A stretch of DNA of 15,364 bases, from assembly GCA_016930315.1 (NCBI GenBank), contig JAFGGX010000022.1, forward strand, positions 1 through 15,364, given 5' to 3'. A program made the translations under genes and the position numbers. Below the pieces are notes generated by a model. It made no database searches. It saw nothing but the letters and a program-made list of their open reading frames with translations, and had not been told where the DNA came from. Below, in pieces: positions 1 through 15,364 of this stretch (positions are counted from its first letter, which is position 1; each line of letters opens with the position of its first letter). Source of the DNA: Candidatus Buchananbacteria bacterium (GTDB lineage: Bacteria; Patescibacteriota; Patescibacteriia; Buchananbacterales; UBA6539).

Positions 1-924
<924 letters not shown>

Positions 925-943
925 AATAACAATTAACAATTGA

Positions 944-3479: not shown

Positions 3480-3800
3480 GCTTTTTCACCTTCTAGATTC
3501 AGAAAGTGGAAAAATTTGTTTTTTCACCCTGACATAGGCCCTAGCCTAAATTTGGTGTTTAATTTAGGCTTTGTACTTTTGTGACCAAAAGTACCAAAAG
3601 TCCTGGGGGCACAAATTCGCCCTTCAGCGATGATTAGTTTTTATTCGGGTTTAGGTTGGGGCTCAGTTGTGCCCCCAGACCCCCCGAGTCTTGGTTTATT
3701 TTTGTTAGAGTCCTTAGCTTCTTTATATTTTGCCACTCGCCACTGCCTGCGCAGGCAGGCTTGTTTCAGGCCGTAGCGGTCGGGTAGTGATGTGTAAACA
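3480..3800. other. GC-rich, highly structured intergenic region; possibly an unidentified ncRNA or a long structured leader/trailer
   Basis: Several stems are visible. Hairpin agcctaaatt/aatttaggct spans 3543-3570 and hairpin gtacttttg/caaaagtac spans 3573-3594. A 12-bp long-range stem ctgggggcacaa (3603-3614) pairs with ttgtgcccccag (3667-3678). A 16-bp perfect palindrome ctgcctgcgcaggcag lies at 3743-3758. The GC content is visibly higher than in the flanking genes and no plausible ORF is present. Confidence 0.3.
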
Positions 3801-3803
3801 AAA

Positions 3804-3834
3804 CCGCCCCCGAGTTACGGGGGCGGCGATTTTG
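3804..3834 (-). terminator. Intrinsic terminator, bidirectional in form; it terminates the S16/KH transcript on the minus strand
   Basis: The stem ccgcccccg-agtta-cgggggcgg is flanked by a T-run on both strands. It lies 10 nt downstream of the KH gene stop. Confidence 0.6.
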
Positions 3835-3843
3835 TGACTCAAA

Positions 3844-4188
3844 TTATATCTTGAGGTCGTCTACCACTGAAGTGTCGGCTTCGACTGAAGCGGCTGCTTC
3901 GGTTGGTTTCACTCTTCTTTGTGAACCCTCTGGTTCATAAATTTTGAGGTTGACTCGGGCGTTGTTTTTGGCACCTACAATTTTGAGTAGGGTCCGAATA
4001 GCCCGGGCAGTTTGACCTTGGCGGCCGATGACATAACCCATATCAGCTGGGTTGATGTGTAGAGTGATCAACACTCCCATTTCATCGACTGTGCGTTCTG
4101 TCTTAACATCAGCAGGATTTGCTACGATTGCTCTGACGATGCTTTCGACAAATTGCTGGTCTGTTTGTTGCTCTGACATATATTGCAA
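3844..4188 (-). CDS. KH-domain RNA-binding protein (UPF0109/YlqC-like), the usual partner of rpsP
   Basis: The motif LHINPADMGYVIGRQGQTARAIRTLL contains the KH GxxG core (here GRQG). The gene sits directly downstream of rpsP, as in the conserved rpsP-KH-rimM-trmD cluster. Confidence 0.8.
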   Translation of the reverse strand: MQYMSEQQTDQQFVESIVRAIVANPADVKTERTVDEMGVLITLHINPADMGYVIGRQGQTARAIRTLLKIVGAKNNARVNLKIYEPEGSQRRVKPTEAAASVEADTSVVDDLKI

Positions 4189-4298
4189 TTCATCATTACT
4201 ACTTAATCTGCTTGCTAGCTCAGTCTGCCGACCTGTTTGGCATTAAATTATTTCGCCTTTGCAGCCTGGCTCTCAAGTTCAGTAAAAGAACTAACTCT

Positions 4299-4326
4299 AT
4301 TATACCACAACCATTGGTTTTGTCAA
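4299..4326 (-). promoter_or_regulatory. Near-consensus promoter for the KH gene on the minus strand (TTGACA-16 nt-TATAAT)
   Basis: The minus strand reads TTGACA at plus 4321-4326 and TATAAT at plus 4299-4304. It lies immediately after the rpsP terminator hairpin. Confidence 0.5.
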
Positions 4327-4329
4327 GTT

Positions 4330-4358
4330 AAAAACACCGCCAAGTTGGCGGTGTTTTT
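4330..4358. terminator. Perfect bidirectional intrinsic terminator/attenuator between rpsP and the KH gene
   Basis: The hairpin is aaaaacaccgcc-aagt-tggcggtgttttt. A-runs and T-runs flank the 8-bp GC stem on both sides. Confidence 0.6.
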
Positions 4359-4378
4359 GGTAATTTTTTTGTTCTAAA

Positions 4379-4861
4379 CTAAGCGGGCTTTTCTTCGGTT
4401 GGTTGTTCTGGTTTAGCTTCTGGTCCTGGAGTTTTTTCGGCCGGTTTTTCTTCTTCCTTTTTTTCTTCAACAGCTGGAGCAGGAGTTTCGGCGACTGGCT
4501 CTGCTTGTTTTTCGGCTGGTGCTTCTGCAGGGGCTTCAGTTGGAGTGGCTTCTTTTTTAACTTCAGCAGCTGGCGCAGCTTCTTCACCTTTTTTCTTTTT
4601 ACCACCAGAGGCTTTGACTTTTTTACCAGTCACCACATTTTGATCAATTAACATATTGTTGACAGTTGGTGACATTTGAGCGCCGAATTTGATCCAATGC
4701 AAGACTCGGTCTTTTTTGATTTCACAAACCTTGGTGAATGGATTGTAGTGACCCAAAATTTCCACGGCTTTACCTTGAGTATCTTTGGTGCTTTCGGAAA
4801 CAACAAAACGATAAGTTGGTTGTTTCTTTTTGCCGACGCGGGCTAATCGAATTTTTAGCAT
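4379..4861 (-). CDS. rpsP: 30S ribosomal protein S16 with a long C-terminal Lys/Ala/Pro/Glu-rich low-complexity extension
   Basis: The N-terminus MLKIRLARVGKKKQPTYRFVVSESTKDTQGKAVEILGHYNPF is canonical S16. Residues from about 85 onward are KKKKGEEAAPAAEVKKEATPTEAPAEAP... low complexity. Confidence 0.9.
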   Translation of the reverse strand: MLKIRLARVGKKKQPTYRFVVSESTKDTQGKAVEILGHYNPFTKVCEIKKDRVLHWIKFGAQMSPTVNNMLIDQNVVTGKKVKASGGKKKKGEEAAPAAEVKKEATPTEAPAEAPAEKQAEPVAETPAPAVEEKKEEEKPAEKTPGPEAKPEQPTEEKPA

Positions 4862-4878
4862 AAATTTATAATACTAAT

Positions 4879-4965
4879 TACGAATTAATACCAATGTTAC
4901 GAATATAAAATCTACGAACATTATTCGTAGATTGGTATGCGATTCGTAGATTCGCATTGCATACC
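4879..4965. repeat. Array of five TACGAA/TTCGTA hexamers in the rpsP upstream region. It includes a perfect 10-bp inverted repeat aatctacgaa-catta-ttcgtagatt (4909-4933), a direct 11-mer repeat attcgtagatt (4923-4933 and 4942-4952) and an enclosing stem ggtatgc/gcatacc (4934-4940 and 4959-4965)
   Basis: All copies are counted directly in the sequence. TACGAA lies at 4879, 4898 and 4913; TTCGTA lies at 4924 and 4943. The array sits 20-105 nt upstream of the rpsP start codon on the minus strand. Confidence 0.55.
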
Positions 4966-5114
4966 TATGAATTAATAATGATCTCATTTAATGCCGAGAT
5001 CGTGAGCACAACCTTTGTTACCTTATTAATGTATAGATTTACATTTAAGGTTTGAGTCTATTCTTACAAAGAATTTGGTTTTTGTCAAGAGTGGCTTGGT
5101 TTAGACATAAGTGC

Positions 5115-5144
5115 TTGACAAAATATAACTTTTAGGGTTATGAT
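5115..5144 (+). promoter_or_regulatory. Consensus sigma70-like promoter TTGACA-18 nt-TATGAT on the plus strand
   Basis: TTGACA lies at 5115-5120 and TATGAT at 5139-5144. The same 11-mer cttgacaaaat recurs at the island promoter at 11385-11395. Confidence 0.45.
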
Positions 5145-5252
5145 TTACAACATACTTTCCGATCTATCGCTCAGAGTTCTAAAGTCGTAAGACTTAAAGA
5201 GTTCTGTGATTGGTTAGTCATTTTCGTACTCATGTACGTGCGAGGTTGTATT

Positions 5253-5606
5253 ATGTCGTTACCGCAAGAAGCTCACGTAGACACGCCGTCACGCTCGTTG
5301 GAGTGGACAATGAATGGTCCTGAAGGCCTGCTGTCTAAGCCGACCAGAAATGAAGTCGATCATGTCTTGGCTTCGGAGCTCAGAAAAAAGCGCGACCCGA
5401 AGAAGATTCATGAAAGCCTCTCCCCCGACACCAGGCTTCGCGACATTCTTCCTAAGGAGGTCGTCGTTATTCATCCCCTTTGTTCGGTGGTGTGTAGGAG
5501 ATTGGAGATTCTTCCTGTCATGTCTTCTCGTATACCTCTCGATGATCAGACTTATGGAGATGTGCTTCAATTGCTTTGCGGTCTGTGTGGCTGCTCCCCC
5601 GCTTGA
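5253..5606 (+). CDS. Hypothetical 117-aa protein in a GC-rich cassette; it may alternatively be part of a structured RNA
   Basis: A GAGG lies 9 nt upstream of the ATG (gcgaggttgtattATG). The ORF is open in a local region of about 50% GC, where two other frames are also open. The predicted protein is charged and hydrophilic with a Cys-rich C-terminus (LCGLCGCSPA) and matches no family I recognise. Confidence 0.35.
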   Translation: MSLPQEAHVDTPSRSLEWTMNGPEGLLSKPTRNEVDHVLASELRKKRDPKKIHESLSPDTRLRDILPKEVVVIHPLCSVVCRRLEILPVMSSRIPLDDQTYGDVLQLLCGLCGCSPA

Positions 5607-5742
5607 AAGGATGGTAGAGGAGAGGAGTTTTGCTCATTGTCATTTTCTTATCATTCCGGCCTGTGGCTGGTGTGGTAAACCAAACTTCGGTCAATGACCG
5701 AAACTAAAACCGCCGGAGCTCCAAAAGCCCCGGCGAATTTCT

Positions 5743-5767
5743 GCCCAAAATTTGTGGGCATTTTTTT
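5743..5767 (+). terminator. Intrinsic terminator for the plus-strand GC-rich unit: gcccaaaatttgtgggc followed by T7. A second hairpin cgccgg...ccggcg at 5711-5735 may serve the convergent SMC gene
   Basis: The stem plus TTTTTTT run is visible in the sequence. Confidence 0.5.
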
Positions 5768-5778
5768 ATTTTGAGGAT

Positions 5779-8103
5779 TTATTGTCTAACAATTTTTGCT
5801 GCCTCCTCGAGCTGCAAACTTAGAAGTTTCGATATTCCGTCATCGCCCATGGTGACACCATAAAGAATGGAAGCTTTTTGCATGGTGGCGCGATTATGAG
5901 TAATGACAATAAATTGAGTTTTGTGAGAGAGCTCATCTAAAATTTTAGAAAAGCGTTGAGAGTTAGTTTCGTCCAAAGCAGCATCAACTTCATCTAAAAT
6001 TACAAACGGTGACGGGTTGTTGGCGATGATAGCACAAATTAAAGCAATGGCGGTTAACGACCGCTCGCCACCGGAAAGAATATTAACCGAAGAAACTTTT
6101 TTGCCCGGAGGAGTGGCGGTAATGTCGATGCCAGTAATGACTTTGCCGGTGGTTTTTTTTAAAAATCTTTTGGGTGAAATTGATTTTTCGGCATTTTGGA
6201 GTTGATCGAGAATCGAAGGCGAAGCCAAAAGTGATTCGTCGGGGTTTTGCGGGTTAGCAACATCAGTTTCAGTCGGTTTTTTTTCTTCGACCTCATTTGG
6301 ATCTTGTTTAATTAAAGTTAAAGTTGCTTTGCCGCCGCCAAATAAGGTGTTGAAAAATTTGGCAAATTCTTTGTTGATGTTTTTAAACGCTTCGTCAAAT
6401 TGAACTTGGATTTTTTCGTCCAGGTCGGTAATAATTTTTTCTAAAGATTTAATTGAATTACGTAGGTCGTCAGCTTGGGTTGATAAAAAGTCATGGCGGT
6501 CTTTTACTTTTTTGTGTTCGTCAATTACTTGGGGATCAACTCCGCCGATTAGTTCGAGTTGGCGGCGCTGTTTGATAATTTCTTCATGTAAAGCCACCTC
6601 ATTAATTTTTTCGGCTTGGTAATCTTTTAACCAGCCGCTGTCTTTAACCTCGTCTTTAATTTCTTGAGTTAAACTTTGTTGGCGGGTTTCGAGTTTGGCC
6701 ATTTCAATTCGGATTTCCGAAACCGCGCTGGCTTGTTGGTTATATTGATTTTGGCGGTCCGAAATTTTTCGTTGTAAATCAAAGAATTCACCTTTTTGTT
6801 TTTGTTGATCTTGATTAAAATTGGCAATGTCGGTTGAAGCTCCACTGAGTTGTTTTTCCATGGCACCTAAATCTTTTTTTACTGCTTCTAAATCTTTGAT
6901 AAAACTCGGATCAATTTCGGTTGCCACTTTTTCTTTGACTTGCGGATTTTCGAGTTGGCTGATTAAGTCTTTAATTAAACTAGCTAAGTCTTTGGTGTCG
7001 GATTTAATTTGGCCAATTTTGTCCGCCTTGCCGCTTTCGATATTTTTGCTGATTTGGTCTTGCAAGCTGGCAATCGCTTTTAGTTTTTTGATAATTTCTA
7101 AAATTGGCAGCGGGGAAGCTTTAATGGTTTGGCGCTGTTTGGCCATTTCAATTTTGTGTTCCAGCATCAATTGCTCTTCGCGCAGTTTGTTTTTTTGTTC
7201 GAGTAATTTTTGGTAGCGGCTTTGCAACTCGGTGAATTTGGAGTTACTGGTATCTTGTTTTTCTAAGCTCGACAAACGTTGTTGGGCGGCTTTTAATTCT
7301 TGATCTTTTTTGGCCAGTTCGACTTCGGCCGTTTGCAATTTAGGTTTAAGGTCGGTAACTTGTTGGGTTAGTTGCCGATTTAACCAGCCATAATATTTTT
7401 TTTGGGTTTGCTCTAACTCCGCTTCAATTTTGGCCCGGCGTTCCAAACGATGAACTTGGCGGGTGAGTGAATTTAAGCGGGGGGAAATTTCGGTCAGTAA
7501 TGCGTCAATTTGTAATAAATTGTTCCAGGCGTTTTCTAATTTGTTAATTGAACTGTCGCGTTTGATCTGAAATTCTTTGACCCCAACCGCTTCATCAAAA
7601 TATTCTTTTCGATCCGACGGGTTAGCCATAATCACTTGATCAATCGAACCCTGAGAAACAATGCTGTAACTTTTTTGACCAAAATTAGCCTTGGCGGCTA
7701 AAAGTAAAATATCTTGTAAACGAACTTTGCTGTTGTTGATTAAATATTGGCTTTCACCATCACGATACATTTTGCGGCTGATAATTACTTCATCGTAATC
7801 AATCGGTACCAAGTGAGCGGTGTTATCAATAATAATTTTTACTTCCGACATGCCCAGTCGGCCTTTTTTTTCTGAACCAGAAAAAATAACATCTTGCGAT
7901 TTTTTACCGCGTAAACTTTTTAAACTTTGTTCACCTAAAACCCAGCGAATGGCGTCAACCAAATTACTTTTGCCAGAACCATTGGGCCCGACAATACAAG
8001 CAATACCACAGCGGTCTGTGGTTATATTACGACTAGGAAAGGTGAGTAGGGTTTTTTGAGCGAAAGATTTAAAACCTTGGATCTCAATACTTTTGATAAA
8101 CAT
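5779..8103 (-). CDS. smc: SMC-family chromosome-segregation ATPase, short form (about 775 aa) with no recognisable hinge domain
   Basis: The N-terminus MFIKSIEIQGFKSF...IVGPNGSGKSNLVDAI carries the SMC FKSF motif and a Walker A box. The C-terminus LSGGERSLTAIALICAI...FVILDEVDAALDETN...QFIVITHN has the ABC signature, Walker B and D-loop. The middle is continuous coiled-coil-like sequence with no Gly-rich hinge. The start is taken as M14 of the ORF (8103). Confidence 0.8.
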   Translation of the reverse strand: MFIKSIEIQGFKSFAQKTLLTFPSRNITTDRCGIACIVGPNGSGKSNLVDAIRWVLGEQSLKSLRGKKSQDVIFSGSEKKGRLGMSEVKIIIDNTAHLVPIDYDEVIISRKMYRDGESQYLINNSKVRLQDILLLAAKANFGQKSYSIVSQGSIDQVIMANPSDRKEYFDEAVGVKEFQIKRDSSINKLENAWNNLLQIDALLTEISPRLNSLTRQVHRLERRAKIEAELEQTQKKYYGWLNRQLTQQVTDLKPKLQTAEVELAKKDQELKAAQQRLSSLEKQDTSNSKFTELQSRYQKLLEQKNKLREEQLMLEHKIEMAKQRQTIKASPLPILEIIKKLKAIASLQDQISKNIESGKADKIGQIKSDTKDLASLIKDLISQLENPQVKEKVATEIDPSFIKDLEAVKKDLGAMEKQLSGASTDIANFNQDQQKQKGEFFDLQRKISDRQNQYNQQASAVSEIRIEMAKLETRQQSLTQEIKDEVKDSGWLKDYQAEKINEVALHEEIIKQRRQLELIGGVDPQVIDEHKKVKDRHDFLSTQADDLRNSIKSLEKIITDLDEKIQVQFDEAFKNINKEFAKFFNTLFGGGKATLTLIKQDPNEVEEKKPTETDVANPQNPDESLLASPSILDQLQNAEKSISPKRFLKKTTGKVITGIDITATPPGKKVSSVNILSGGERSLTAIALICAIIANNPSPFVILDEVDAALDETNSQRFSKILDELSHKTQFIVITHNRATMQKASILYGVTMGDDGISKLLSLQLEEAAKIVRQ

Positions 8104-8129
8104 ATACATACATATGATAGCAAACCGGC

Positions 8130-8154
8130 TGACTAAAAACAATATTTGTGCTAA
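8130..8154 (+). repeat. Direct repeat copy 1: tgactaaaaacaatatttgtgctaa, promoter-like (cTGACT-17 nt-TAAGGT)
   Basis: It is identical over 25 nt to 10824-10848 and lies at the left edge of the GC-rich island, 150 nt upstream of the NfeD gene. Confidence 0.8.
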
Positions 8155-8303
8155 GGTTTAATGTTTGGTTAAGTGCCAAACGGCGGTTTGTCAGATAATT
8201 TAATCCATTAATTTCTTGACCAAGAAAGGAGGAAGTAAGAACCTGGAACTGTGGTGAGCCGGCGTTTTAGTCGGCCTTTATTCTGCATAAGGAGTTCAGG
8301 GTA

Positions 8304-8837
8304 ATGCTCATCAGTCTCGGAACGTACATGCTGATTGCTGTGGTTGGTTTTTTGTTACTGGCTGGTTCCCTGTTTTTCGGCGGTGACACTGATGTTGACG
8401 TCGATGTTGACGTCGATGTTGACGTCGGTTCAGGGATCAGTTGGATCAGCTTCAAAACCATCATGGCATTCGTGACCGGTTTTGGCGCTTCCGGCGCAAT
8501 TGCCAAATCCTTCCGCGTATCGGATCTCTTGACGCTCTTTGCAGCAATCGTCGGCGGCTTTGGTATAGCTGTCATCGCTGCTTTGATCGTCAGACATCTG
8601 TATCGGTCACAGTCCAACTCAAGCTACTCATCGTGCGACCTGGCCGATAAAACCGGCAGGGTAGTCGGTGAGATTATTCCTGGCCATTATGGCAATGTGA
8701 GTGTCAGCTTGCATGGTGAAACAATCACCAAACCAGCCAAGGCACCAAACGAAATCGAACCGATCAAAGTCGGCTCAACCGTCAAGGTAGTTTCTGCCAG
8801 CTCGACTGAGTTGGTGGTTGAACGTGTAATCAGTTAA
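8304..8837 (+). CDS. NfeD-like membrane protein: N-terminal transmembrane segments plus a C-terminal OB-fold beta-barrel, the usual partner of SPFH/flotillin proteins
   Basis: The product has an N-terminal hydrophobic domain and a C-terminal GRVVGEI...GSTVKVVSASSTELVVERV beta-rich domain typical of short NfeD (YuaF-like). A strong AAGGAG lies 9 nt upstream of the ATG. The gene is GC-rich and immediately precedes the flotillin gene, as in yuaF-floT operons. Confidence 0.75.
   Translation: MLISLGTYMLIAVVGFLLLAGSLFFGGDTDVDVDVDVDVDVGSGISWISFKTIMAFVTGFGASGAIAKSFRVSDLLTLFAAIVGGFGIAVIAALIVRHLYRSQSNSSYSSCDLADKTGRVVGEIIPGHYGNVSVSLHGETITKPAKAPNEIEPIKVGSTVKVVSASSTELVVERVIS
8391..8426 (+). repeat. Exact 12-nt tandem repeat gatgttgacgtc x3, encoding (DV)n within GDTDVDVDVDVDVDVGSG
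   Basis: The three copies are counted in the sequence. The repeat lies inside the NfeD-like CDS, between the first TM helix and the second membrane segment. Confidence 0.85.
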
Positions 8838-8894
8838 CCTGAAGTTTTGGTTAGCAAAACCTATTACCCCTAATCTTGAAAGGAATTCATCGAG

Positions 8895-10709
8895 ATGATT
8901 TCAGCTGCAAGTTTCCTGTCTGGTATTGATCTCGGAAGCCTGGTTCGTCCGGGCATGGTTTTGCTGGCGGTGTTGGCTCTGATCATCATCGTCATGCTGG
9001 TGTTGAGAAACTACAGAACCGTACCGCCTGACAAAGTTTTGGTGGTCTACGGTTGGAAGAAGGGCAACAAAGCCGGCGACCGCGGATTCAAAATGATCAC
9101 CGGCGGTGCTACCATCGTCTTACCGCTGGTGCAAAGTTTCAAGGAGCTGTCATTGGCGGCGTTTCAGGTGAAATTCTCGGTCACTAACGTACCCAGTAAG
9201 GAAGGCGTACGCGTTACCGTCAGCTCAGTGGCCACTTTGAAAATCGGCAGTAGTGACGAGATGCTGTCGTTGGCGGCGCGACGCTTTCTGCACATGGATC
9301 TGAATCAGGTACATACCTTTGCTCAGGAAGTATTGGAGGGTGGCCTGCGTGGCGTGGTAGCCACGCTGACCGTCGAAGGCCTGGTGCAGAACCGTCAGGA
9401 GTTCACTGAGGCCGTTATGGGTCAAGTCACTGATGACTTGGCCAAGCTTGGTCTTGAAGTAGACAACTTCGTCATCCAAGACATCGATGACGAAGGGGGC
9501 TACATCAACGCTTTGGGTCTCAAGCGTACGGCGGAAGTCAAGCGCGATGCCAAAATCGGTGAGGCTGAAGCCAGGCGCGATGAGGACATCAAGGTGGCCG
9601 AAGCCCAGCGTGAAGCCGACGAGAAATCTTCCGCAGCCAGACGCATCGGCGAGACAGCCAAGGCTGAGGCCGAGCAGAAGATCAGCGACGCTCAGCGTAT
9701 TCGCGATGAGCAAATCGCCAAGAATCAGGCCATCGTCGAGCGGGAAAAAGCCCGTGTGCCGGTGGCCGCCAAAATCGCTGCTCAGGAAGAACAGAAAACC
9801 TTGGGCGTCAAAACCGTTGAAGCCGAGCAGGCCGAGACCGAGGCCAGGATTCTGCTTCAGGAAAAGGAACGGGAACGTAAAGACGCTGAGCTCAGGGCCA
9901 CGGTTATCGTCACCGCCGAACGCACCAAGGAAGCATCGGTGATCACTGCCCAGGGCGAGGCTCAAGCCGAGATCGAAAAAGCCAAAGGCGAACGTACGGC
10001 CGAAGTTGAACGCGCCGAAGGCAAGAAAAGCGCCCAGGTGCTCAAGTCCGAAGGCGAGAAGACCGCGGCTGAACAAGCTGCTGAGGGTCGTAAGGCCCAA
10101 GCCGTTGCTCTCCAATCGGAAAAAGAGGCCGAAGCGGCTGGTCAGAGAGCCAATCTCTTGGCCACCGCCGAAGGCGAGAAGGCCAAGTTGCTGGCCACCG
10201 CCGAAGGCGAGAGGGCGAAACTGGAAGCCGAAGCCAGAGGCGTTGAGGTCAGAGGTCTCGCTGAAGCCTTGGCCGTCCAGAAGAAAGCCGAAGCCTACGC
10301 GTTGCTCGACCAAACCGGAAAGTTCCTACAGATTCTCGAAGCCATGCCCGGACTGATCGAAGCCCTTGGCGTCGCGGTCAGGACCGCCGGCGAAGGCACG
10401 GTCACGCCGATGGCCAAAGCCATCGGAGACGGCCTCGGGAACATCAAAGAGGTTCGCATCGTCGAAATCGGCAAACCCGGAAGCGATGGCACCAAAAGCC
10501 AAAACCCGTTGTCCAGAATCGCCAACATCACCCCCGACACCATCTTCGCCCTGGTCAAACAGTTCGAGGCTCTGGGATTTGGCGACGTCTTGAAGCAGGT
10601 GGCCACCAAGGCCGGTATCGACCTGTCTTCGATTGTGGAGAATGGGCCGAAGATCGAAGCCACTCCGCCCGAACCCGAATCGCCTCCGAACGTTCCGACC
10701 GAGAACTGA
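8895..10709 (+). CDS. floT: Flotillin (SPFH/band-7 family, FloT/YuaG-like) with a long Glu/Ala-rich coiled-coil region
   Basis: The product has an N-terminal TM segment, an SPFH domain (VLVVYGWKKGN...KELSLAAFQVKFSVTNVPSKEGVRVTVSSVATLKI...) and flotillin-type EA repeats (AEAQREADEK..., LLATAEGEKAKLLATAEGERAKLEAEARG). An AAAGGA Shine-Dalgarno site is present, the gene is GC-rich, and it follows an NfeD gene. Confidence 0.85.
   Translation: MISAASFLSGIDLGSLVRPGMVLLAVLALIIIVMLVLRNYRTVPPDKVLVVYGWKKGNKAGDRGFKMITGGATIVLPLVQSFKELSLAAFQVKFSVTNVPSKEGVRVTVSSVATLKIGSSDEMLSLAARRFLHMDLNQVHTFAQEVLEGGLRGVVATLTVEGLVQNRQEFTEAVMGQVTDDLAKLGLEVDNFVIQDIDDEGGYINALGLKRTAEVKRDAKIGEAEARRDEDIKVAEAQREADEKSSAARRIGETAKAEAEQKISDAQRIRDEQIAKNQAIVEREKARVPVAAKIAAQEEQKTLGVKTVEAEQAETEARILLQEKERERKDAELRATVIVTAERTKEASVITAQGEAQAEIEKAKGERTAEVERAEGKKSAQVLKSEGEKTAAEQAAEGRKAQAVALQSEKEAEAAGQRANLLATAEGEKAKLLATAEGERAKLEAEARGVEVRGLAEALAVQKKAEAYALLDQTGKFLQILEAMPGLIEALGVAVRTAGEGTVTPMAKAIGDGLGNIKEVRIVEIGKPGSDGTKSQNPLSRIANITPDTIFALVKQFEALGFGDVLKQVATKAGIDLSSIVENGPKIEATPPEPESPPNVPTEN
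10159..10224 (+). repeat. Near-identical 33-nt tandem duplication inside the flotillin gene, encoding LATAEGEKAKL/LATAEGERAKL
   Basis: The unit tggccaccgccgaaggcgagaaggccaagttgc is followed by tggccaccgccgaaggcgagagggcgaaactgg. Confidence 0.8.
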
Positions 10710-10786
10710 TCTCGTCGCACATTCTCCTTTCGGTTATCGAACCTTGTAACATTCACCAATTTGGCCAATAAAGCCATTGAGGTTAT

Positions 10787-10818
10787 GCCCCGTTGTGAAA
10801 GCGACGGGGCTTTTCATT
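10787..10818 (+). terminator. Intrinsic terminator after the flotillin gene (gccccgt-tgtgaaagcg-acggggc followed by ttttcattt), fused to direct repeat copy 2
   Basis: The hairpin and T-run are visible. It is part of the recurring unit cggggcttttcattt-NNNN-ttgac(a/t)aaaa. Confidence 0.6.
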
Positions 10819-10823
10819 TATAT

Positions 10824-10848
10824 TGACTAAAAACAATATTTGTGCTAA
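10824..10848 (+). repeat. Direct repeat copy 2, tgactaaaaacaatatttgtgctaa, identical to 8130-8154; promoter-like (TTGACT-17 nt-TAATTT)
   Basis: The two copies match 25 of 25 nt. The NfeD and flotillin genes lie between them. Confidence 0.8.
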
Positions 10849-10932
10849 TTTTTTTTGGTCGATGTCTTAGCAGAAATACTAAGATCTCGATTAGTTGTTT
10901 AACTCTGACCTGAAGAGAGAGGAGAATGTCTC

Positions 10933-11289
10933 GTGGGTGAGAAACAGCTTTATGTTATTGTGTTGGCCGGGATTGTGATTCTGTTGTGTGCTGTTGTGTG
11001 CGTCATGGCAGTATTTAAGTTGATTGCGGCCAAAGAGGAAGCACCCGAGCCCAGAAAACTCGAGCCCAAAGAACCTCAACCGCCCAAACGCCCGATCGTT
11101 TTGGTTCGACCGAAACACCCCCAAGGCGGCCATCCTTGGTTTTGGTTGTCTCGCAGGCAACCGGTAAAACCGAGTAACCAGCCCTCACACCCGCTCTTTT
11201 TGCCGCGTCGAAAATCCACAGCCTTCAAAGCCACTCCAAGGTTGCCAAGATTTCCGGGTTTTCAGCGTAAAAAAGGCGTAAAGCGTTAG
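10933..11289 (+). CDS. Small single-pass membrane protein with a Pro/Lys/Arg-rich tail (hypothetical)
   Basis: The gene has a GTG start with AGAGGAGA 8 nt upstream. One TM helix (LYVIVLAGIVILLCAVVCVMAVF) is followed by EAPEPRKLEPKEPQPPKRP... The gene is GC-rich. Confidence 0.45.
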   Translation: MGEKQLYVIVLAGIVILLCAVVCVMAVFKLIAAKEEAPEPRKLEPKEPQPPKRPIVLVRPKHPQGGHPWFWLSRRQPVKPSNQPSHPLFLPRRKSTAFKATPRLPRFPGFQRKKGVKR

Positions 11290-11347
11290 TTAGCCTAACC
11301 GATTAAATGCTCTATTGTATTTTTGGGGAAAGAAAATCCCAAGTTGT

Positions 11348-11380
11348 GCGCCCCCCAGCCAAAGCTGCGGGGCTTTTCAT
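11348..11380 (+). terminator. Intrinsic terminator (gcgcccccc-agccaaa-gctgcggggc followed by ttttcattt). It is the second copy of the terminator-promoter unit
   Basis: The hairpin is followed by the same ggggcttttcattt tail as at 10804-10818. Confidence 0.55.
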
Positions 11381-11385
11381 TTGTC

Positions 11386-11414
11386 TTGACAAAATGTGAT
11401 ATTTATGATAAGGT
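11386..11414 (+). promoter_or_regulatory. Promoter-like TTGACA-17 nt-TAAGGT, related to the 8130 and 10824 repeats (shared tgac.aaaa...atattt...taaggttt frame)
   Basis: TTGACA lies at 11386-11391 and TAAGGT at 11409-11414. It is followed by a leader containing hairpin agctg-ttttt-cagct followed by a T-run (11444-11466). Confidence 0.4.
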
Positions 11415-11560
11415 TTGCAATCGTTCATTATATTTAAAATTCAAGCTGTTTTTCAGCTTTTTGGCTATTATTTGATAGTAGTTGAAAGGCTGGAAAACAA
11501 CTTAGTACGACATCATCATGTGAGGGTTACTCTCACTTATCTGTTTGAAAGGAAACGATC

Positions 11561-11968
11561 ATGAACCCAAAGTCCGAATGGCGAGGCCTTCTGCTACGCT
11601 CTTTCATCTTCTGGATCATTATCACCCTTTTCTTCAGCCTGTTGCGTCTGGCCACTGCAGGCCCCATGCTGGAGTTTGCCTTGGTCTTCAGCTTGTATTA
11701 CGGCTTGGGCGCCGGATTTTACATGATCAGCTGGTCGACCCAGGACTGGAAACAGGACTCAGCGGTAACCATAGTCGTTATCTACTTGGTGCTACTCATC
11801 TGTTTCTTAGGCTTCGGTCGTCTCGACCTTTTCGACAATCCGTCGAATATCTCGCGGGCAGAGGAGTTCCTGGTGGTCTTTGTCGGGTTTATGGTCACAA
11901 GGATTGTCGCCCACCACCCGCTGCAGAGGCCGAAGAGGAGATTGCCTGGGCCAACCATTCTCACTTGA
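11561..11968 (+). CDS. Hypothetical 4-TM membrane protein (135 aa)
   Basis: AAAGGA lies 8 nt upstream of the ATG. The product has four hydrophobic helices. The gene is GC-rich and I recognise no family. Confidence 0.5.
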   Translation: MNPKSEWRGLLLRSFIFWIIITLFFSLLRLATAGPMLEFALVFSLYYGLGAGFYMISWSTQDWKQDSAVTIVVIYLVLLICFLGFGRLDLFDNPSNISRAEEFLVVFVGFMVTRIVAHHPLQRPKRRLPGPTILT

Positions 11969-12012
11969 ACGATCAGTGGTTACCTGATTGTCCAGTCACT
12001 TTGATGTCTTTT

Positions 12013-12058
12013 CCGCCCGCTACTCTTTGTGTGTTGCGGGCGGCTTTTCTTTTTTAGG
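12013..12058 (+). terminator. Intrinsic terminator at the right edge of the island (ccgcccgc...gcgggcgg followed by cttttctttttt)
   Basis: An 8-bp GC stem and a T-run are visible. A second terminator, ccaccc-agattg-gggtgg followed by a T-run, follows at 12127-12160. Confidence 0.6.
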
Positions 12059-12213
12059 CAAGAATGTCTATTAAGGGATTAAAAATCTTTTGGTGAGCTA
12101 GTGGACTGAGCAATCTGATTATCTATCCACCCAGATTGGGGTGGATTTTTGCTTTTTTTGCTTTTTTCAATTATAATTAAAGCAAATCATAAGTTAAAAA
12201 CGGTTATTAATTC

Positions 12214-12921
12214 TTGAATATTTTGTTAATTTTTAAGATGCTTTACTTTTTAGATATTCCAAATATTTTGTTAGTAATTTTAGCACTCAGTTTGGGTTTG
12301 TATGGTTTTGTAAAAAATCCAAAGTCCAGATTGGTTCAGGTTTGGTTTGCTTTGAATATGGCAGTGACAGCTTGGGCAGTTGGTTATATTTTGACTAATT
12401 ATTCAGTCAGTAATAGCCAAGCATTTATTTGTTTAAAAATAGTTTATTTTGCAGCTTCATTAATCCCTATCTTGTTTTTCCATTTTGTTTCTAGCTTTTT
12501 ATTTAAGAATTATAAATATAGGATTCTAATCTATATTGGTTATATTTCGGCCCTATTTTTTTTAATATTGAATGTATTAACCAATCATATTATTTCTGGT
12601 ATCAGGTTCATGGAAAATTACGGAAGCTATGAGGAAATCGAAACAAAGGGATTTTATTTTTTCTTGATTTATTTTTTCTTTTTTTCTTTCTTTTCCATCG
12701 GCTTGCTTTGGAAAGGCTATAAGGAAAGCAGTGGGGTAAGAAAACGCCAGATTTTTTATATTGCCTTAGCCGCCTTAGTTGGGTTTTTGGGCGGCACGTC
12801 AAATTTTTTTACCGATTTAACTGGGATTTATCCTTATGGTCAGTTTGTAGTGTGGCTTTATCCTTTATTTATCACTTATGGGATGTATATTGATGAGATT
12901 CAAATTAAAATTAAGTTTTAA
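12214..12921 (+). CDS. Polytopic membrane protein, paralog 1 of 3; resembles the N-terminal 7TM region of sensor histidine kinases and GGDEF proteins (7TM sensor-like) but has no output domain
   Basis: The 235-aa product has about 7 hydrophobic helices. A family pattern is shared with the next two genes: TM1, a basic K/R-N turn, a W-containing TM2, and F(F/L)(H/E)...YFP(Y/F)QR(W/V)E after TM3. The gene is extremely AT-rich. The domain assignment is from memory of the family consensus. Confidence 0.6.
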   Translation: MNILLIFKMLYFLDIPNILLVILALSLGLYGFVKNPKSRLVQVWFALNMAVTAWAVGYILTNYSVSNSQAFICLKIVYFAASLIPILFFHFVSSFLFKNYKYRILIYIGYISALFFLILNVLTNHIISGIRFMENYGSYEEIETKGFYFFLIYFFFFSFFSIGLLWKGYKESSGVRKRQIFYIALAALVGFLGGTSNFFTDLTGIYPYGQFVVWLYPLFITYGMYIDEIQIKIKF

Positions 12922-12923
12922 CT

Positions 12924-13601
12924 ATGGATTGGAGTAATTTAGGTTTAATTTTTGTGGCCGGGTCACAGTTAACGTTGGCGTTCATTATTTTATTTATCAA
13001 TTTCAAAAACAAAATTTGTTTGTATTTTTCAGCAGCAGTTTTCTGTTTGGCCGCCTGGACTGCTTTTACTGCTTTATTCCGGATGGTCAGTGGAGTCGAA
13101 GCGATTAGGATTTTATATAGTTTTAAGATCTCGTTTGGGTTGTTAATTGCTTTATTTTTTGAAATTTTTGCCATTTATTTTCCTTATCAAAGATGGGAAA
13201 TAAATAAATTGGTCCAAGCCATAGTTATGATTCCTACCTTGCTGACGATTTTAATTATTTTAACTTTTCCGCAGTTTTTGTTAACTAATATTTTTGTTAA
13301 CCCTGGCGCTAATACAGTCACAGTCAATAAAATTTTTTGGATACTTTTTTCATTCAGTTTTACTTTAAGTTTTGTAGCAGTTTTTGTTCGACTGATTATT
13401 AAGTTTAAAGAGATTGGCGGGTTTATGAAAAAGTCTTTGTTGTTTGTAATAGTCGGCGGATTGGTACCAGTGATTTTATCTTGGTTTTTTAATATTATAT
13501 TTTTATTTTTTGATGTTTTTGTATTTGATTGGATTGGTGCATTATTGAGTTTGATATTTTGTTTTGTTATGTATTATTTTATTTTTTTTAAAATGGATTA
13601 A
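12924..13601 (+). CDS. Polytopic membrane protein, paralog 2 of 3 (7TM sensor-like, stand-alone)
   Basis: The start lies 2 nt after the previous stop. The product is 225 aa with the same topology and the motif FFEIFAIYFPYQRWE. Confidence 0.6.
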   Translation: MDWSNLGLIFVAGSQLTLAFIILFINFKNKICLYFSAAVFCLAAWTAFTALFRMVSGVEAIRILYSFKISFGLLIALFFEIFAIYFPYQRWEINKLVQAIVMIPTLLTILIILTFPQFLLTNIFVNPGANTVTVNKIFWILFSFSFTLSFVAVFVRLIIKFKEIGGFMKKSLLFVIVGGLVPVILSWFFNIIFLFFDVFVFDWIGALLSLIFCFVMYYFIFFKMD

Positions 13602-13606
13602 GTTTT

Positions 13607-13762
13607 ATGAGCTTGATTAATTTAGGGTTGGTTCTTATAGTGGGACTAAATTTTGGTTTAGCATTTTTGATTTGGTCAATTAACAAAAAAAATAAGATTA
13701 GTATTTCTTTTTCTTTGCCAATGATTGTAATTTTGGCTTGGTTTGTTTTGAATAAAAAATAA
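13607..13762 (+). pseudogene. Truncated copy or fragment of the 7TM paralog family (51 codons; first two helices only)
   Basis: MSLINLGLVLIVGLNFGLAFLIWSINKKNKISISFSLPMIVILAWFVLNKK mirrors the TM1-KN-TM2(W) N-terminus of the neighbouring genes and then stops. It may instead be a genuine small protein. Confidence 0.3.
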
Positions 13763-13766
13763 TTTT

Positions 13767-14447
13767 ATGAGGTATTTTTATATAACGCTTTTAGCTCTAA
13801 ATGCGCCTATTGCTATTCTAAGTTTTATTTTTTCTTGGATCATTTTAAAAAATTGGAAAAGCAAAGTTTATTTTAATTTTGGGATGTCTGCTTTATTTTT
13901 GGGTCTATGGCTTTCCGCTTCTGAGATAATGTATCTCGATTTAAATTTTTTGCCTAGGATTTTTATAGTAGATTTAACTTTTTTGTTTGGGATTTGGATT
14001 TTGCATTATTTTTATATTTTTACTTATTATTTTCCATTTCAAAGAGTCGAAATCAGGTGGCAAGAAAAATTCATATATTTTTTGACTATTTTGATATCTG
14101 TAAGCATATTTATTCCTAGTTTATATGCTCGTTCCGCAGATTTAGATTTTCCGTTTCTTTTTGTTAATATAAATAAAATCGGCCTTTCAATTTTTGTGGC
14201 CTATTTTGTTTTATTAATTGTTCTGTCATTAAAAAATTTGTTGTCAAAATATTTTATCAGTGATGGAATACACAAAATAAATTTAAAAAAAGTAATAGTG
14301 GGCACGACGCTGGCTTTGATTGTAAATTTATTTTTTAGCATGTCTATTTATTTTTTTACAGAGTTTGATACTAATGTTGTTGGTGCTTTTTTTACTTTGG
14401 GCGTAATAATTTATATTTATTTAATTTTATTTCCCAGAGATATTTGA
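13767..14447 (+). CDS. Polytopic membrane protein, paralog 3 of 3 (7TM sensor-like, stand-alone)
   Basis: The 226-aa product contains the motif ILHYFYIFTYYFPFQRVE. Unlike the other two paralogs it has no Cys. Confidence 0.6.
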   Translation: MRYFYITLLALNAPIAILSFIFSWIILKNWKSKVYFNFGMSALFLGLWLSASEIMYLDLNFLPRIFIVDLTFLFGIWILHYFYIFTYYFPFQRVEIRWQEKFIYFLTILISVSIFIPSLYARSADLDFPFLFVNINKIGLSIFVAYFVLLIVLSLKNLLSKYFISDGIHKINLKKVIVGTTLALIVNLFFSMSIYFFTEFDTNVVGAFFTLGVIIYIYLILFPRDI

Positions 14448-14454
14448 AATCTTT

Positions 14455-15165
14455 ATGTTAGATAAAAAATTTTGGAAAAAATACTTTACGGTTTATGATG
14501 TTCTTAATATTGTTATACCTTATAAAGAATTAATGTCTACAATTTGTGATAAAGCGGACGTAAAAAAGGGCGATTTGATATTAGATGCTGGGTCAGGCAC
14601 TGGCAATTTATCTTTGGAATTAGTACATCGTGGCGCTACCGTGTATGCTACTGATTTCATAAAGGAGGGGCTGGATATATATAAGGAGAAAAATCAAAAT
14701 GCAATAGCAATTCAGCATGATTTAACCGAAAGACTGCCATTCCCTGATGATTTTTTTGATAAAATTGTATCTAATAACGTTTTGTATTCTGTGAGCAAAA
14801 AAGATAGGAGATTTGTCATATCTGAATTATATCGTGTGTTAAAACCAGGCGGTAAGATTGTCATTTCTAATATAAAAAGTGGTTGGAGTCCATATCGCAT
14901 TTATCTCAGTCATTTAGTAAAAGAATATAATAATTCTGGGCCGTTTATTTTATTGGTAAGAATTGTAAGATTTATTTTTCCTACTATGATGATGTTTTTA
15001 TATAATGCTAAAATCAAGAGAGATTCTGGGGCTGGCGGTGGTTATAATTTTTTTGAGTCAGGAGAACAGAGGAATTTGTTAATTAATGGAAATTTTAGGC
15101 GTGTGTCAGAAGATGTGGAAGTCTATGCAGATCAAGCGATATTGAATACTGGTTTTAAAATTTAA
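14455..15165 (+). CDS. Class I SAM-dependent methyltransferase
   Basis: Motif I is LDAGSGTGNLS, post-I is VYATDF and motif II/III is LKPGGKIVISN. Confidence 0.8.
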   Translation: MLDKKFWKKYFTVYDVLNIVIPYKELMSTICDKADVKKGDLILDAGSGTGNLSLELVHRGATVYATDFIKEGLDIYKEKNQNAIAIQHDLTERLPFPDDFFDKIVSNNVLYSVSKKDRRFVISELYRVLKPGGKIVISNIKSGWSPYRIYLSHLVKEYNNSGPFILLVRIVRFIFPTMMMFLYNAKIKRDSGAGGGYNFFESGEQRNLLINGNFRRVSEDVEVYADQAILNTGFKI

Positions 15166-15174
15166 TTTCTATAT

Positions 15175-15364
15175 ATGAAAGAAATGTTAAGAATTTATTT
15201 AGGTGATTGTAAGGACAAATATGTATCATTTGGCATGCCAGATAGTCAGGCGGAGCTGAATGAAATGTTTTCTCTTAGATATAAAGCATATTCTAGAAAA
15301 TTTTTTATAGAAGAAAATAATCTTGGTTTAGACATCGATCACTATGATGAAATTGGCGCATGCC
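15175..15364 (+). CDS. Partial ORF running off the window end; N-terminus weakly reminiscent of GNAT-fold N-acyl amino acid synthases or LuxI-like acyltransferases
   Basis: MKEMLRIYLGDCKDKYVSFGMPDSQAELNEMFSLRYKAYSRKFFIEENNLGLDIDHYDEIGAC contains an L-R-Y-K-x-(Y/F) stretch similar to the LRY.VF motif that opens those families. Only 63 codons are visible. Confidence 0.3.
   Translation, partial: MKEMLRIYLGDCKDKYVSFGMPDSQAELNEMFSLRYKAYSRKFFIEENNLGLDIDHYDEIGAC

Follow-up and report, generated by a model that had tools for sequence, protein, structure and literature searches.

The contig JAFGGX010000022.1, from a metagenome-assembled genome (MAG) of Candidatus Buchananbacteria in the candidate phyla radiation (CPR, or Patescibacteria), carries beside its SMC gene a GC-rich segment that encodes an NfeD-like protein, a flotillin-family protein (locus tag JW816_02320) and two small proteins, here called Pro118 and TM135. 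The window analysed is this whole contig (15,364 nt). The coding DNA of the segment, hereafter the island, is compositionally foreign and was laterally acquired. With moderate confidence, we read the island as three transcription units lodged in a hypervariable slot at the side of SMC, the short direct repeats around the NfeD-flotillin pair as copies of a promoter, and a GC-rich member of the same clade as the likely donor. Loci from other genomes are referred to below by L numbers. Horizontal acquisition had already been proposed in an earlier note on this DNA. The proposal agrees with the foreign composition and with the absence of the island from the related loci L007, L008 and L009, but a further relative, L029, has an NfeD-flotillin pair at the same locus.

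Composition and translation signals of the island

Base composition was assessed in 400-nt sliding windows. GC content is 0.49-0.615 at ~8200-12000, compared with 0.37-0.43 at 6000-8200 and 0.25-0.34 at 12200-15200. The GC content at third codon positions (GC3) ranges from 0.52 to 0.71 in the four island genes (Table 1), from 0.30 to 0.43 in the genes to the left and from 0.23 to 0.32 in those to the right, and four-fold sites show a GC of 0.66 within the island as against 0.49 (left) and 0.35 (right). Because GC3 and four-fold-site GC differ as well, the shift goes beyond an amino-acid effect. This comparison of island and flanks covers the present contig alone. Among 26 CPR loci, the window has the widest spread of GC over 1-kb pieces (standard deviation 0.081; 0.024-0.071 in the others). 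The GC-rich segment at ~8200-12060 described in the earlier note is thus confirmed by the sliding-window profile, by GC3 and by four-fold sites. Its very AT-rich background is found in the right flank, but the left flank is only moderately AT-rich and has further GC-rich patches, namely the 16S rRNA gene (1-926) and an orphan unit (5150-5740).

Translation signals differ too. Shine-Dalgarno (SD) sites (AAGGAG, AAAGGA, GAGGAG and AAAGGAAA) are located 8-16 nt upstream of the four island start codons; outside the island, such a site is seen in the hydrolase gene only (AAGGTG). The contrast in SD sites drawn earlier therefore stands for all four island genes, but native genes do not lack these sites altogether.

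The direct repeats are predicted promoter copies

Exact copies of the 25-mer TGACTAAAAACAATATTTGTGCTAA are present at 8130-8154 and 10824-10848, as had been reported, and no comparable pair was generated in 200 dinucleotide-preserving shuffles, even at 3 mismatches. A third copy had been missed; it lies at 11387-11416 and has diverged to 77% identity with copy 1. Copies 2 and 3 lie within a common 67-nt module of terminator plus promoter, with 73% identity when compared with 10787-10853.

Each of the three copies can be read as a promoter (P1 to P3, Table 1), and the spacers end at their 3' side in TGTGc or TATGa, which places a TG at -15/-14. A simple promoter scan omitted P1-P3, since TAAGGT and TAATTT fall under its -10 score threshold. 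A similar promoter, TTGACAAAACCAATGGTTGTGGTATAAT, is found before the native KH gene (4326-4299). When 411 kb of CPR DNA was searched with a profile built from six promoter units, nothing further had an E value under 0.01, and the next-best match was this KH promoter, which argues that the promoter type belongs to the host lineage. The 25-nt repeat is predicted to consist of copies of a host-type sigma-70 promoter.

P2 and P3 stand directly 3' of the predicted terminators T1 and T2, and each promoter copy precedes an 80-145-nt leader, then an SD site and an open reading frame (ORF). By these predicted signals, the segment is composed of three co-oriented promoter-to-terminator units, holding NfeD-flotillin, Pro118 and TM135, and this architecture suggests that the three would be similarly transcribed through their common promoter cores. 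P1 and P2 are identical even where the two corresponding copies in L029 vary. Because this core is identical while the flanks have diverged, recent copying or gene conversion, and not selection alone, is most likely. Under the proposed mechanism, copy 1 would be the native promoter and copy 2 a duplicate within the island that owes its identity to recent duplication or to gene conversion.

Two further readings of these regions were rejected. As an operator palindrome, the ACAA-N3-TTGT motif of the spacer would have arms of only 4 bp, and P3 does not have it; the TTGTG is presumably better read as the TRTG -16 element of Gram-positive promoters. A conserved NfeD leader RNA across phyla was likewise rejected, as no similarity was visible by eye in 8 loci and the fold of the leader in the window is unexceptional (z -0.97), with no Rfam match. 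When regulatory RNA was sought over the leaders and a GC-rich patch at 5.2-5.7 kb, with Rfam at gathering thresholds and at E<=1, only 16S rRNA was significant. The TM135 leader contains an imperfect hairpin; none of 200 shuffles was as stable as this leader, which matches no Rfam family. At the right edge of the island, the terminators T3 and T4 stand in tandem ~70 nt apart, and T4 may be a relic terminator of whatever once preceded the 7TM cluster.

The repeats do not mark the ends of the foreign DNA

The surroundings of copy 1 were compared with the same position in related genomes. The stretch from just 5' of the SMC start codon through P1 into the leader (8111-8166) is identical to positions 63-118 of L029 at 41/56 nucleotides (score 26 vs 9.0 +/- 1.3 in shuffles), and P1 with the leader up to ~8193 aligns to the dapA promoter and leader of L008 (score 22 vs 10.0 +/- 1.5). 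For neither alignment did any of 500 shuffles reach the observed score. The similarity takes in ~20 nt before copy 1 and ~40 nt of leader after it. L008 has no flotillin, and the equivalent promoter there drives dapA. Since the P1 region matches the same position in both L029 and L008, copy 1 represents the native promoter divergent from SMC and is not part of the foreign DNA, which starts ~40-70 nt downstream of it. This boundary, within the NfeD leader, was placed where homology to L008 stops (near 8193) and GC begins to climb (from ~8200). Copy 2 is located inside the GC-rich segment, 1.2 kb from its right end, and the sequence after it is unrelated. With copy 1 native and copy 2 within the island, the repeats are not insertion ends, and the earlier idea that they bracket an insertion has to be abandoned. 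It is after copy 1, not copy 2, that the native-type leader is found, and target-site duplication or Campbell integration at the 25-mer was rejected on this ground. Recombination between the repeats could delete the operon, yet they are neither attachment sites nor insertion scars.

Signs of mobility were also sought. The window contains no tRNA or tmRNA, the island ORFs encode neither an integrase nor a transposase domain, and neither the window nor L029 has a recombinase. No tRNA/tmRNA integration target was detected in the window, L007, L008, L009 or L029, a tRNA-like string in L007 being unconfirmed. An origin from a phage, a defence system or a plasmid was rejected on several comparisons: the four island proteins gave no PADLOC match, the sole PHROG match was a weak, SPFH-type one of the flotillin to phrog_200 (E 2e-10), viral contigs lack the 25-mer, no phage DNA matches the region, and plasmid flotillins are at most 33% identical to that of the window.

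A hypervariable slot beside SMC

An SMC-anchored scan of 185,579 species genomes yielded 22 Patescibacteria loci. rpsP is found just downstream of SMC in 16/22, most of which also have KH and trmD, and in none of the 22 do NfeD, flotillin, Pro118, TM135, the 7TM genes or the methyltransferase lie beside SMC. The SMC of the window is 55-62% identical to those of L007, L008 and L009, and the SMC-rpsP-KH-trmD synteny is conserved. This synteny with Patescibacteria loci, together with the deposit as Candidatus Buchananbacteria, bears out the earlier view that the genome is of the CPR. Five loci (L007, L009, L012, L017 and L019) are titled "uncultured Gammaproteobacteria bacterium" despite a Patescibacteria-like SMC-rpsP-KH-trmD arrangement, and are probably mislabelled.

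In the closest relatives, L007 and L008 (SMC identity 62% and 61%), SMC is divergent from a dapA-like gene followed by polA, and in L009 two other genes and then polA lie beside SMC. All three are AT-rich and have no island next to SMC. In AT-rich relatives, the slot beside the SMC start holds dapA-polA directly or other small units. No locus showed the empty site envisaged earlier, in which the 7TM cluster would come directly after SMC: in the MAG of the closest relative, L007, the 7TM pair (GC 0.32) is on a different contig from SMC. The right flank of the island is native but non-syntenic. At 9640-9885 (minus strand) of L007, an SMC-divergent promoter drives a GC-richer unit of ~230 nt with a strong terminator. 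This unit has no ORF >25 aa and no Rfam match, and it may be a small RNA in the same slot.

A relative with an occupied slot was found by a flotillin-profile metagenome scan, on the JGI contig Ga0209541_10019827 (L029). Here the SMC start plus 18 residues stands divergent from a promoter of the same type, NfeD, flotillin, a third gene (g3), a terminator and a second such promoter, after which come genes for a 188-aa secreted protein, a dapA-like protein, a 340-aa protein and PolA. The PolA is 68% identical to that of L008 (Candidatus Buchananbacteria RIFCSPHIGHO2_02_FULL_39_17), as close as L007 is to L008, and GC is 0.55 throughout L029. The motif TGAC-NN-AAAACAA-NNN-TTGT is rare, with only 4 occurrences across 379 kb of CPR loci; in both the window and L029, the flotillin operon has it on either side. 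Relatives carrying the same genes at this locus with similar composition had been named earlier as a sign that the island is native; L029 has them in the same slot with native-looking composition, but L007, L008 and L009 are without the island. The SMC-adjacent locus is a hypervariable slot in the clade, filled with self-contained promoter-to-terminator units.

Among L029, L007 and L008, PolA is 65-68% identical, yet GC is 0.55 in L029 and 0.38 in L007 and L008, and such a range among relatives makes within-clade transfers visible by composition.

Origin of the island

A GC-rich source within the clade is most likely because the natively GC-rich L029 has an NfeD-flotillin pair in this slot too, with a promoter copy on either side. 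The source would be an unsampled GC-rich clade member that already had the operon in the slot, and the transfer would have occurred by recombination at the locus. Introgression of this kind is preferred because it accounts for the common slot, for the lineage-type promoters and terminators in the island and for its composition. The relative synonymous codon usage of the island correlates with that of native L029 genes at r 0.58-0.60, with that of non-CPR GC-rich flanks at 0.44-0.52, and with that of its own left flank at 0.23.

Several points weigh against this reading. The codon-usage margin favouring L029 is small. In a library of 5.8 billion proteins, the nearest flotillin (P0002) is 55% identical at most, and a donor above 55% is absent. 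The flotillin of the window is 50% identical to that of L029 vs 55% to P0002, and its NfeD is 37% identical to that of L029 vs 42-43% to those of L002, L109 and L112. In a bootstrapped neighbour-joining tree, the window flotillin forms an isolated deep branch and the L029 flotillin groups, at 78% bootstrap, with sequences from Planctomycetes-Verrucomicrobia-Chlamydiae (PVC)-like contexts. The gene g3, which nearly all nearest homologues carry along with NfeD and flotillin, is missing from the window. Orthology of P2 with the second copy in L029 was dropped, as the downstream leaders are not significantly similar (122/500 shuffles). The function of the promoters and terminators is inferred from sequence alone, and the two assemblies that support the contig (see below) were possibly built from the same reads. 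The window and L029 modules are thus not demonstrably orthologous, and a within-clade donor is unproven.

The alternative that survives best is a recent acquisition from a GC-rich donor outside the CPR, with the repeats either marking or mediating the insertion, or arising later through in-situ duplication of the promoter for the next gene. The closest flotillin and NfeD homologues do lie in non-CPR contexts (L109, L002, L006, L112 and L113). Their hosts were judged from neighbouring genes, on GC-rich contigs of mixed affiliation: L002 has POR/ferredoxin genes, the flotillin of L109 adjoins a gene that looks secretin-like by sequence (no Pfam match on record), the gene content of L006, L112 and L113 was read as PVC-like, and RFC subunits in L003 point to an archaeal-like genome. 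The contrast in GC and SD sites is clear, and the identity of P1 and P2 even at positions variable in L029 suggests a recent copy event. However, a native copy 1 with a native-type leader and a copy 2 followed by unrelated sequence are the opposite of what target-site duplication or Campbell integration predicts, the repeats enclose just one of the three GC-rich units, and the window has no integrase, transposase or tRNA. The promoter-operon-promoter layout of L029 would moreover need two independent duplications at the same place. The best identity is only 55%, and with best matches at 50-55% spread over mixed non-CPR and archaeal-like contexts, the source outside the CPR suspected earlier is not supported. 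We regard such a donor as rather unlikely. In L003, at 9000-13000, GC rises from the ~0.32 of an AT-rich contig to 0.42-0.53 over an NfeD-flotillin-g3 module; this is a parallel case of a module GC-richer than its small AT-rich host genome.

The slot might be a promoter-delimited exchange site, at which promoter units act as homology arms and whole operons of differing evolutionary origin are swapped by homologous recombination between GC-rich and AT-rich clade members. This is a long shot, but if true it would explain why non-sister NfeD-flotillin pairs occupy the same place between the same promoter copies in two relatives.

Vertical descent is very doubtful. The locus would then be ancestral to the window and L029 and lost in L007, L008 and L009, with its GC content due to amino acids or selection. 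Both genomes do share the slot, an orthologous P1 and promoter copies flanking the operon, and a flotillin rich in Ala, Glu and Gly raises GC at first codon positions. Yet GC3 and four-fold GC are raised too, including in TM135, an unrelated orphan, and the AT-richness of SMC extends as far as its start codon. Furthermore, the NfeD and flotillin sequences of the window and L029 are not sisters, and an inherited gene is expected to drift to host composition.

A chimeric contig would arise if conserved promoter or intergenic sequence had led to false joins between the flotillin region of a GC-rich relative and AT-rich contigs. Three compositional regimes do meet within 15 kb, with the largest GC spread of the 26 loci; the island sits at a synteny break, SMC and the 7TM genes are on separate contigs in the MAG of the closest relative, and promoter sequence is common to GC-rich and AT-rich clade members. 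Two false joins would be needed, however, and a Logan contig from SRR13394437 (10691 nt) is 99.99% identical to window positions 3710-14400, so that a second assembler yields the same 10.7 kb with one mismatch and covers all three junctions. Logan uses k = 31, longer than the 25-nt repeat, and the k-mers used by the assemblers exceed 25 nt. A chimeric join at the 25-mer is unlikely because this independent contig reproduces the junctions and because the repeat is shorter than k. The orthologous P1 sequences are only ~72% identical between genomes, and the identity of P1 and P2 across the supposed join favours a single genome. We therefore consider a chimera highly improbable.

That the repeated units are recombination sites of an integron-like cassette-exchange system, with promoter features incidental, is scarcely credible: units of 45-67 nt do separate same-strand single-gene units, and flotillin modules of apparently different origin do occupy the same slot in two genomes, but neither the window nor L029 has a recombinase gene, the promoter geometry is exact, the terminator hairpins have U-tracts, a related promoter precedes a housekeeping gene, and there is no PADLOC or PHROG signal.

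Gene products of the island

The earlier identification of NfeD-like and flotillin genes was upheld, firmly for the flotillin and more weakly, by sequence, for NfeD. The flotillin (604 aa) matches PF01145 over residues 42-227 with 91.9 bits vs a cut-off of 23.6. Against structures, flotillin-1 and flotillin-2 (9bq2) are matched at E 2e-37 and 1.5e-36 and QmcA only at E 1e-4, which places the protein nearer to flotillins than to other SPFH classes. Its sole NCBIfam match is FloT, at 206 bits vs the equivalog cut-off of 700, and it is therefore not a FloT equivalog. PF15975 has no match in the window flotillin and is matched in some relatives. An N-terminal hydrophobic segment at 19-37 (Kyte-Doolittle hydropathy 3.08), high Ala (14.4%) and Glu (11.4%) contents and internal repeats of the AEGEKAKLLA type were noted. 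By homology, the protein would be held in the membrane by its N-terminal helix and would oligomerise through an Ala/Glu-rich coiled coil into a membrane scaffold.

The candidate NfeD (177 aa) combines transmembrane (TM) helices at its N terminus with an acidic DV repeat and, at the C terminus, a putative beta domain. By hydropathy, TM segments are located at 1-19 and 78-96, with a weaker one near 50-70. Its score against PF01957 (22.5 bits) is under the cut-off of 29.1, the YuaF structure 2k14 is matched at E 0.19 over residues 103-168, there is no NCBIfam match, and its relatives give weak matches to PF25842 (NfeD_TM). The gap to the flotillin gene is 57 nt. Despite these weak scores, the architecture fits, and the assignment is supported because NfeD homologues directly adjoin flotillin on its 5' side in 56/83 fetched flotillin loci; the window NfeD shares 37-43% identity with its counterparts 5' of flotillin in L002, L109, L112 and L029. 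The pair is assigned to the NfeD2-SPFH2 (FloT-YuaF type) operon class, which has a patchy distribution and for which joint lateral transfer of SPFH2 and its NfeD partner has been described (Hinderhofer et al. 2009, PMC2636767). From what is known of the family, the NfeD partner would associate with flotillin through its C-terminal beta domain (PMC2636767). The g3 of the related modules encodes ~140-210 aa, gives weak Pfam Pro_CA_2 matches in L002 and L112, and has no NCBIfam match. Relative to the g3 of L029, those of L109 and L111 are 59% identical and that of L110 is 31% identical; in the other loci, g3 was recognised by position and common motifs.

With its single TM segment (8-26), Pro118 is a candidate membrane protein of the single-pass type; its Pro content is 15% and its net charge +18. 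It was called in the Logan annotation and is apparently absent from the deposited one, because the tags of flotillin (02320) and TM135 (02325) are consecutive there. Since it is apparently unannotated in the deposited record, it is uncertain as a real gene. TM135 is an orphan: a word search of 5.8 billion proteins and a full HMMER scan of 1.84 billion representatives found only TM135 itself. It had been described as a 4-TM protein, but three segments exceed the hydropathy threshold. Neither Pro118 nor TM135 has a match in Pfam, NCBIfam, PADLOC or PHROG, or a tblastn match in the 83 flotillin loci or the 22 SMC loci. To judge from their architecture, the two may be membrane clients or unrelated passengers.

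Flanking genes and other features

The gene order of the window is trmD, a membrane protein, a hydrolase, a KH protein, rpsP, an orphan unit, SMC, the GC-rich segment, three HisKA_7TM paralogues and a methyltransferase. SMC is short across the clade, with 776 aa in the window, ORFs of ~800 aa in L007 and L008, and tblastn spans of ~730-890 codons elsewhere. Bacterial SMC typically measures ~1180 aa, and the coiled coil of the clade would then be much shortened.

The HisKA_7TM paralogues (235, 225 and 226 aa) are 7TM sensor-type domains without an attached kinase. Homologues of the right-flank 7TM proteins at 50-59% identity belong to named Magasanikbacteria and Moranbacteria. Homologues of ~228 aa are widespread in the CPR, and in L115 a pair of them lies near a full 7TM-GAF-HisKA-HATPase kinase.

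A second GC-rich patch (~0.50) at 5115-5740, between SMC and rpsP, is a self-contained unit flanking SMC, with a predicted near-consensus promoter, an orphan ORF and a terminator (Table 1). It has no match in Pfam, NCBIfam, PADLOC, PHROG or Rfam and no counterpart in the 22 related loci.

Table 1 Predicted and annotated features of the window, and positions of g3 in related loci (S-adenosylmethionine, SAM).
Feature	Position	Strand	Basis or remark
16S rRNA gene	1-926	-	covers 5' 946 positions of gene
Patch promoter, near-consensus	5115-5144		TTGACA-18-TATGAT; sequence
Patch orphan ORF, 117 aa	5253-5606		GC3 0.53
Patch hairpin terminator	5710-5736		sequence
SMC gene, 776 aa	5779..8109	-	PF02463 E 1.7e-67; GC3 0.37; native left flank, divergent from island
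Promoter P1 (repeat copy 1)	8129..8157	+	cTGACT, 17-nt spacer, TAAGGT, TG at -15/-14
5' leader, NfeD-flotillin unit	8158..8303	+	native/foreign boundary inside, ~8190-8230
NfeD-like protein, YuaF/NfeD2 type, 177 aa	8304..8837	+	PF01957 E 1.4e-4; SD AAGGAG; GC3 0.55
Flotillin-family SPFH protein, 604 aa	8895..10709	+	PF01145 E 6.6e-26; GC3 0.67
Intrinsic terminator T1	10787..10819	+	10-bp GC-rich stem and U-tract; -19.6 kcal/mol, z -5.1
Promoter P2 (repeat copy 2)	10823..10851	+	TTGACT, 17-nt spacer, TAATTT, TG; nhmmer E 1e-4
Pro118, candidate single-pass membrane protein, basic Pro-rich tail	10933..11289	+	GTG start, SD GAGGAG; GC3 0.52
Intrinsic terminator T2, T1 paralogue	11350..11382	+	-17.2 kcal/mol, z -2.7
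Promoter P3 (diverged third copy)	11386..11414	+	TTGACA, 17-nt spacer, TAAGGT, TG; nhmmer E 0.003
Imperfect hairpin, ~26 bp, TM135 leader	11443..11502	+	leader -39.3 kcal/mol, z -4.6
TM135, orphan small membrane protein, 3 segments over hydropathy threshold	11561..11968	+	GC3 0.71
Intrinsic terminator T3, right end of GC-rich segment	12013..12056	+	-19.5 kcal/mol, z -3.4; GC falls after ~12060
Terminator-like hairpin T4, AT-rich spacer before 7TM genes	12125..12155	+	-13.7 kcal/mol, z -3.1
Native right flank: 3 tandem stand-alone HisKA_7TM paralogues, 51-aa fragment, SAM methyltransferase	12214..15165	+	PF16927, PF08241
g3 in L002	11962-12423
g3 in L003	11838-12338
g3 in L006	11777-12409
g3 in L029	2530-3003
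g3 in L109	4037-4462
g3 in L111	9330-9845
g3 in L112	6271-6741

Comparison with known systems

This reduced CPR genome has a laterally acquired membrane-scaffold operon. The gene content itself adds little, since a flotillin was noted earlier in a CPR genome, that of Vampirococcus (PMC8080830), and co-transfer of SPFH2 and NfeD has been described (PMC2636767). The case is one of ordinary gene transfer of a known operon class. The points of interest are the promoter triplication, the promoter-delimited hypervariable slot beside SMC that is also seen in L029, and the orphan GC-rich genes. The case further illustrates that direct repeats which are short, perfect and placed around an operon may stem from promoter duplication and need not be insertion scars.

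Like classical genomic islands, the segment has an atypical composition, is absent from the close relatives L007, L008 and L009 and lies at a synteny break. Unlike classical tRNA-linked islands, it comes with no integrase, transposase or tRNA, and its direct repeats are, by prediction, promoters located off the island ends.

The NfeD-flotillin pair resembles yuaF-floT (yuaG) of Bacillus subtilis in that a small three-part NfeD-like gene lies directly 5' of the gene for an anchored flotillin with an Ala/Glu-rich coiled coil. FloT measures ~509 aa; the window flotillin is longer, falls far short of the FloT equivalog score, and is not accompanied by yuaI. In contrast to yuaF-floT, the clade of the window flotillin normally has a third gene, g3, although the window itself is without it.

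A parallel in position is the module of L029, which fills the same slot on the divergent side of the SMC start; the promoter upstream of it is orthologous to P1, and a second copy of that promoter type comes after its operon terminator. The two modules differ in sequence, being 50% (flotillin) and 37% (NfeD) identical and non-sister in trees. Unlike the window, L029 keeps g3 and has dapA-polA downstream, and the composition of its module matches that of its host, with a GC content of 0.55.

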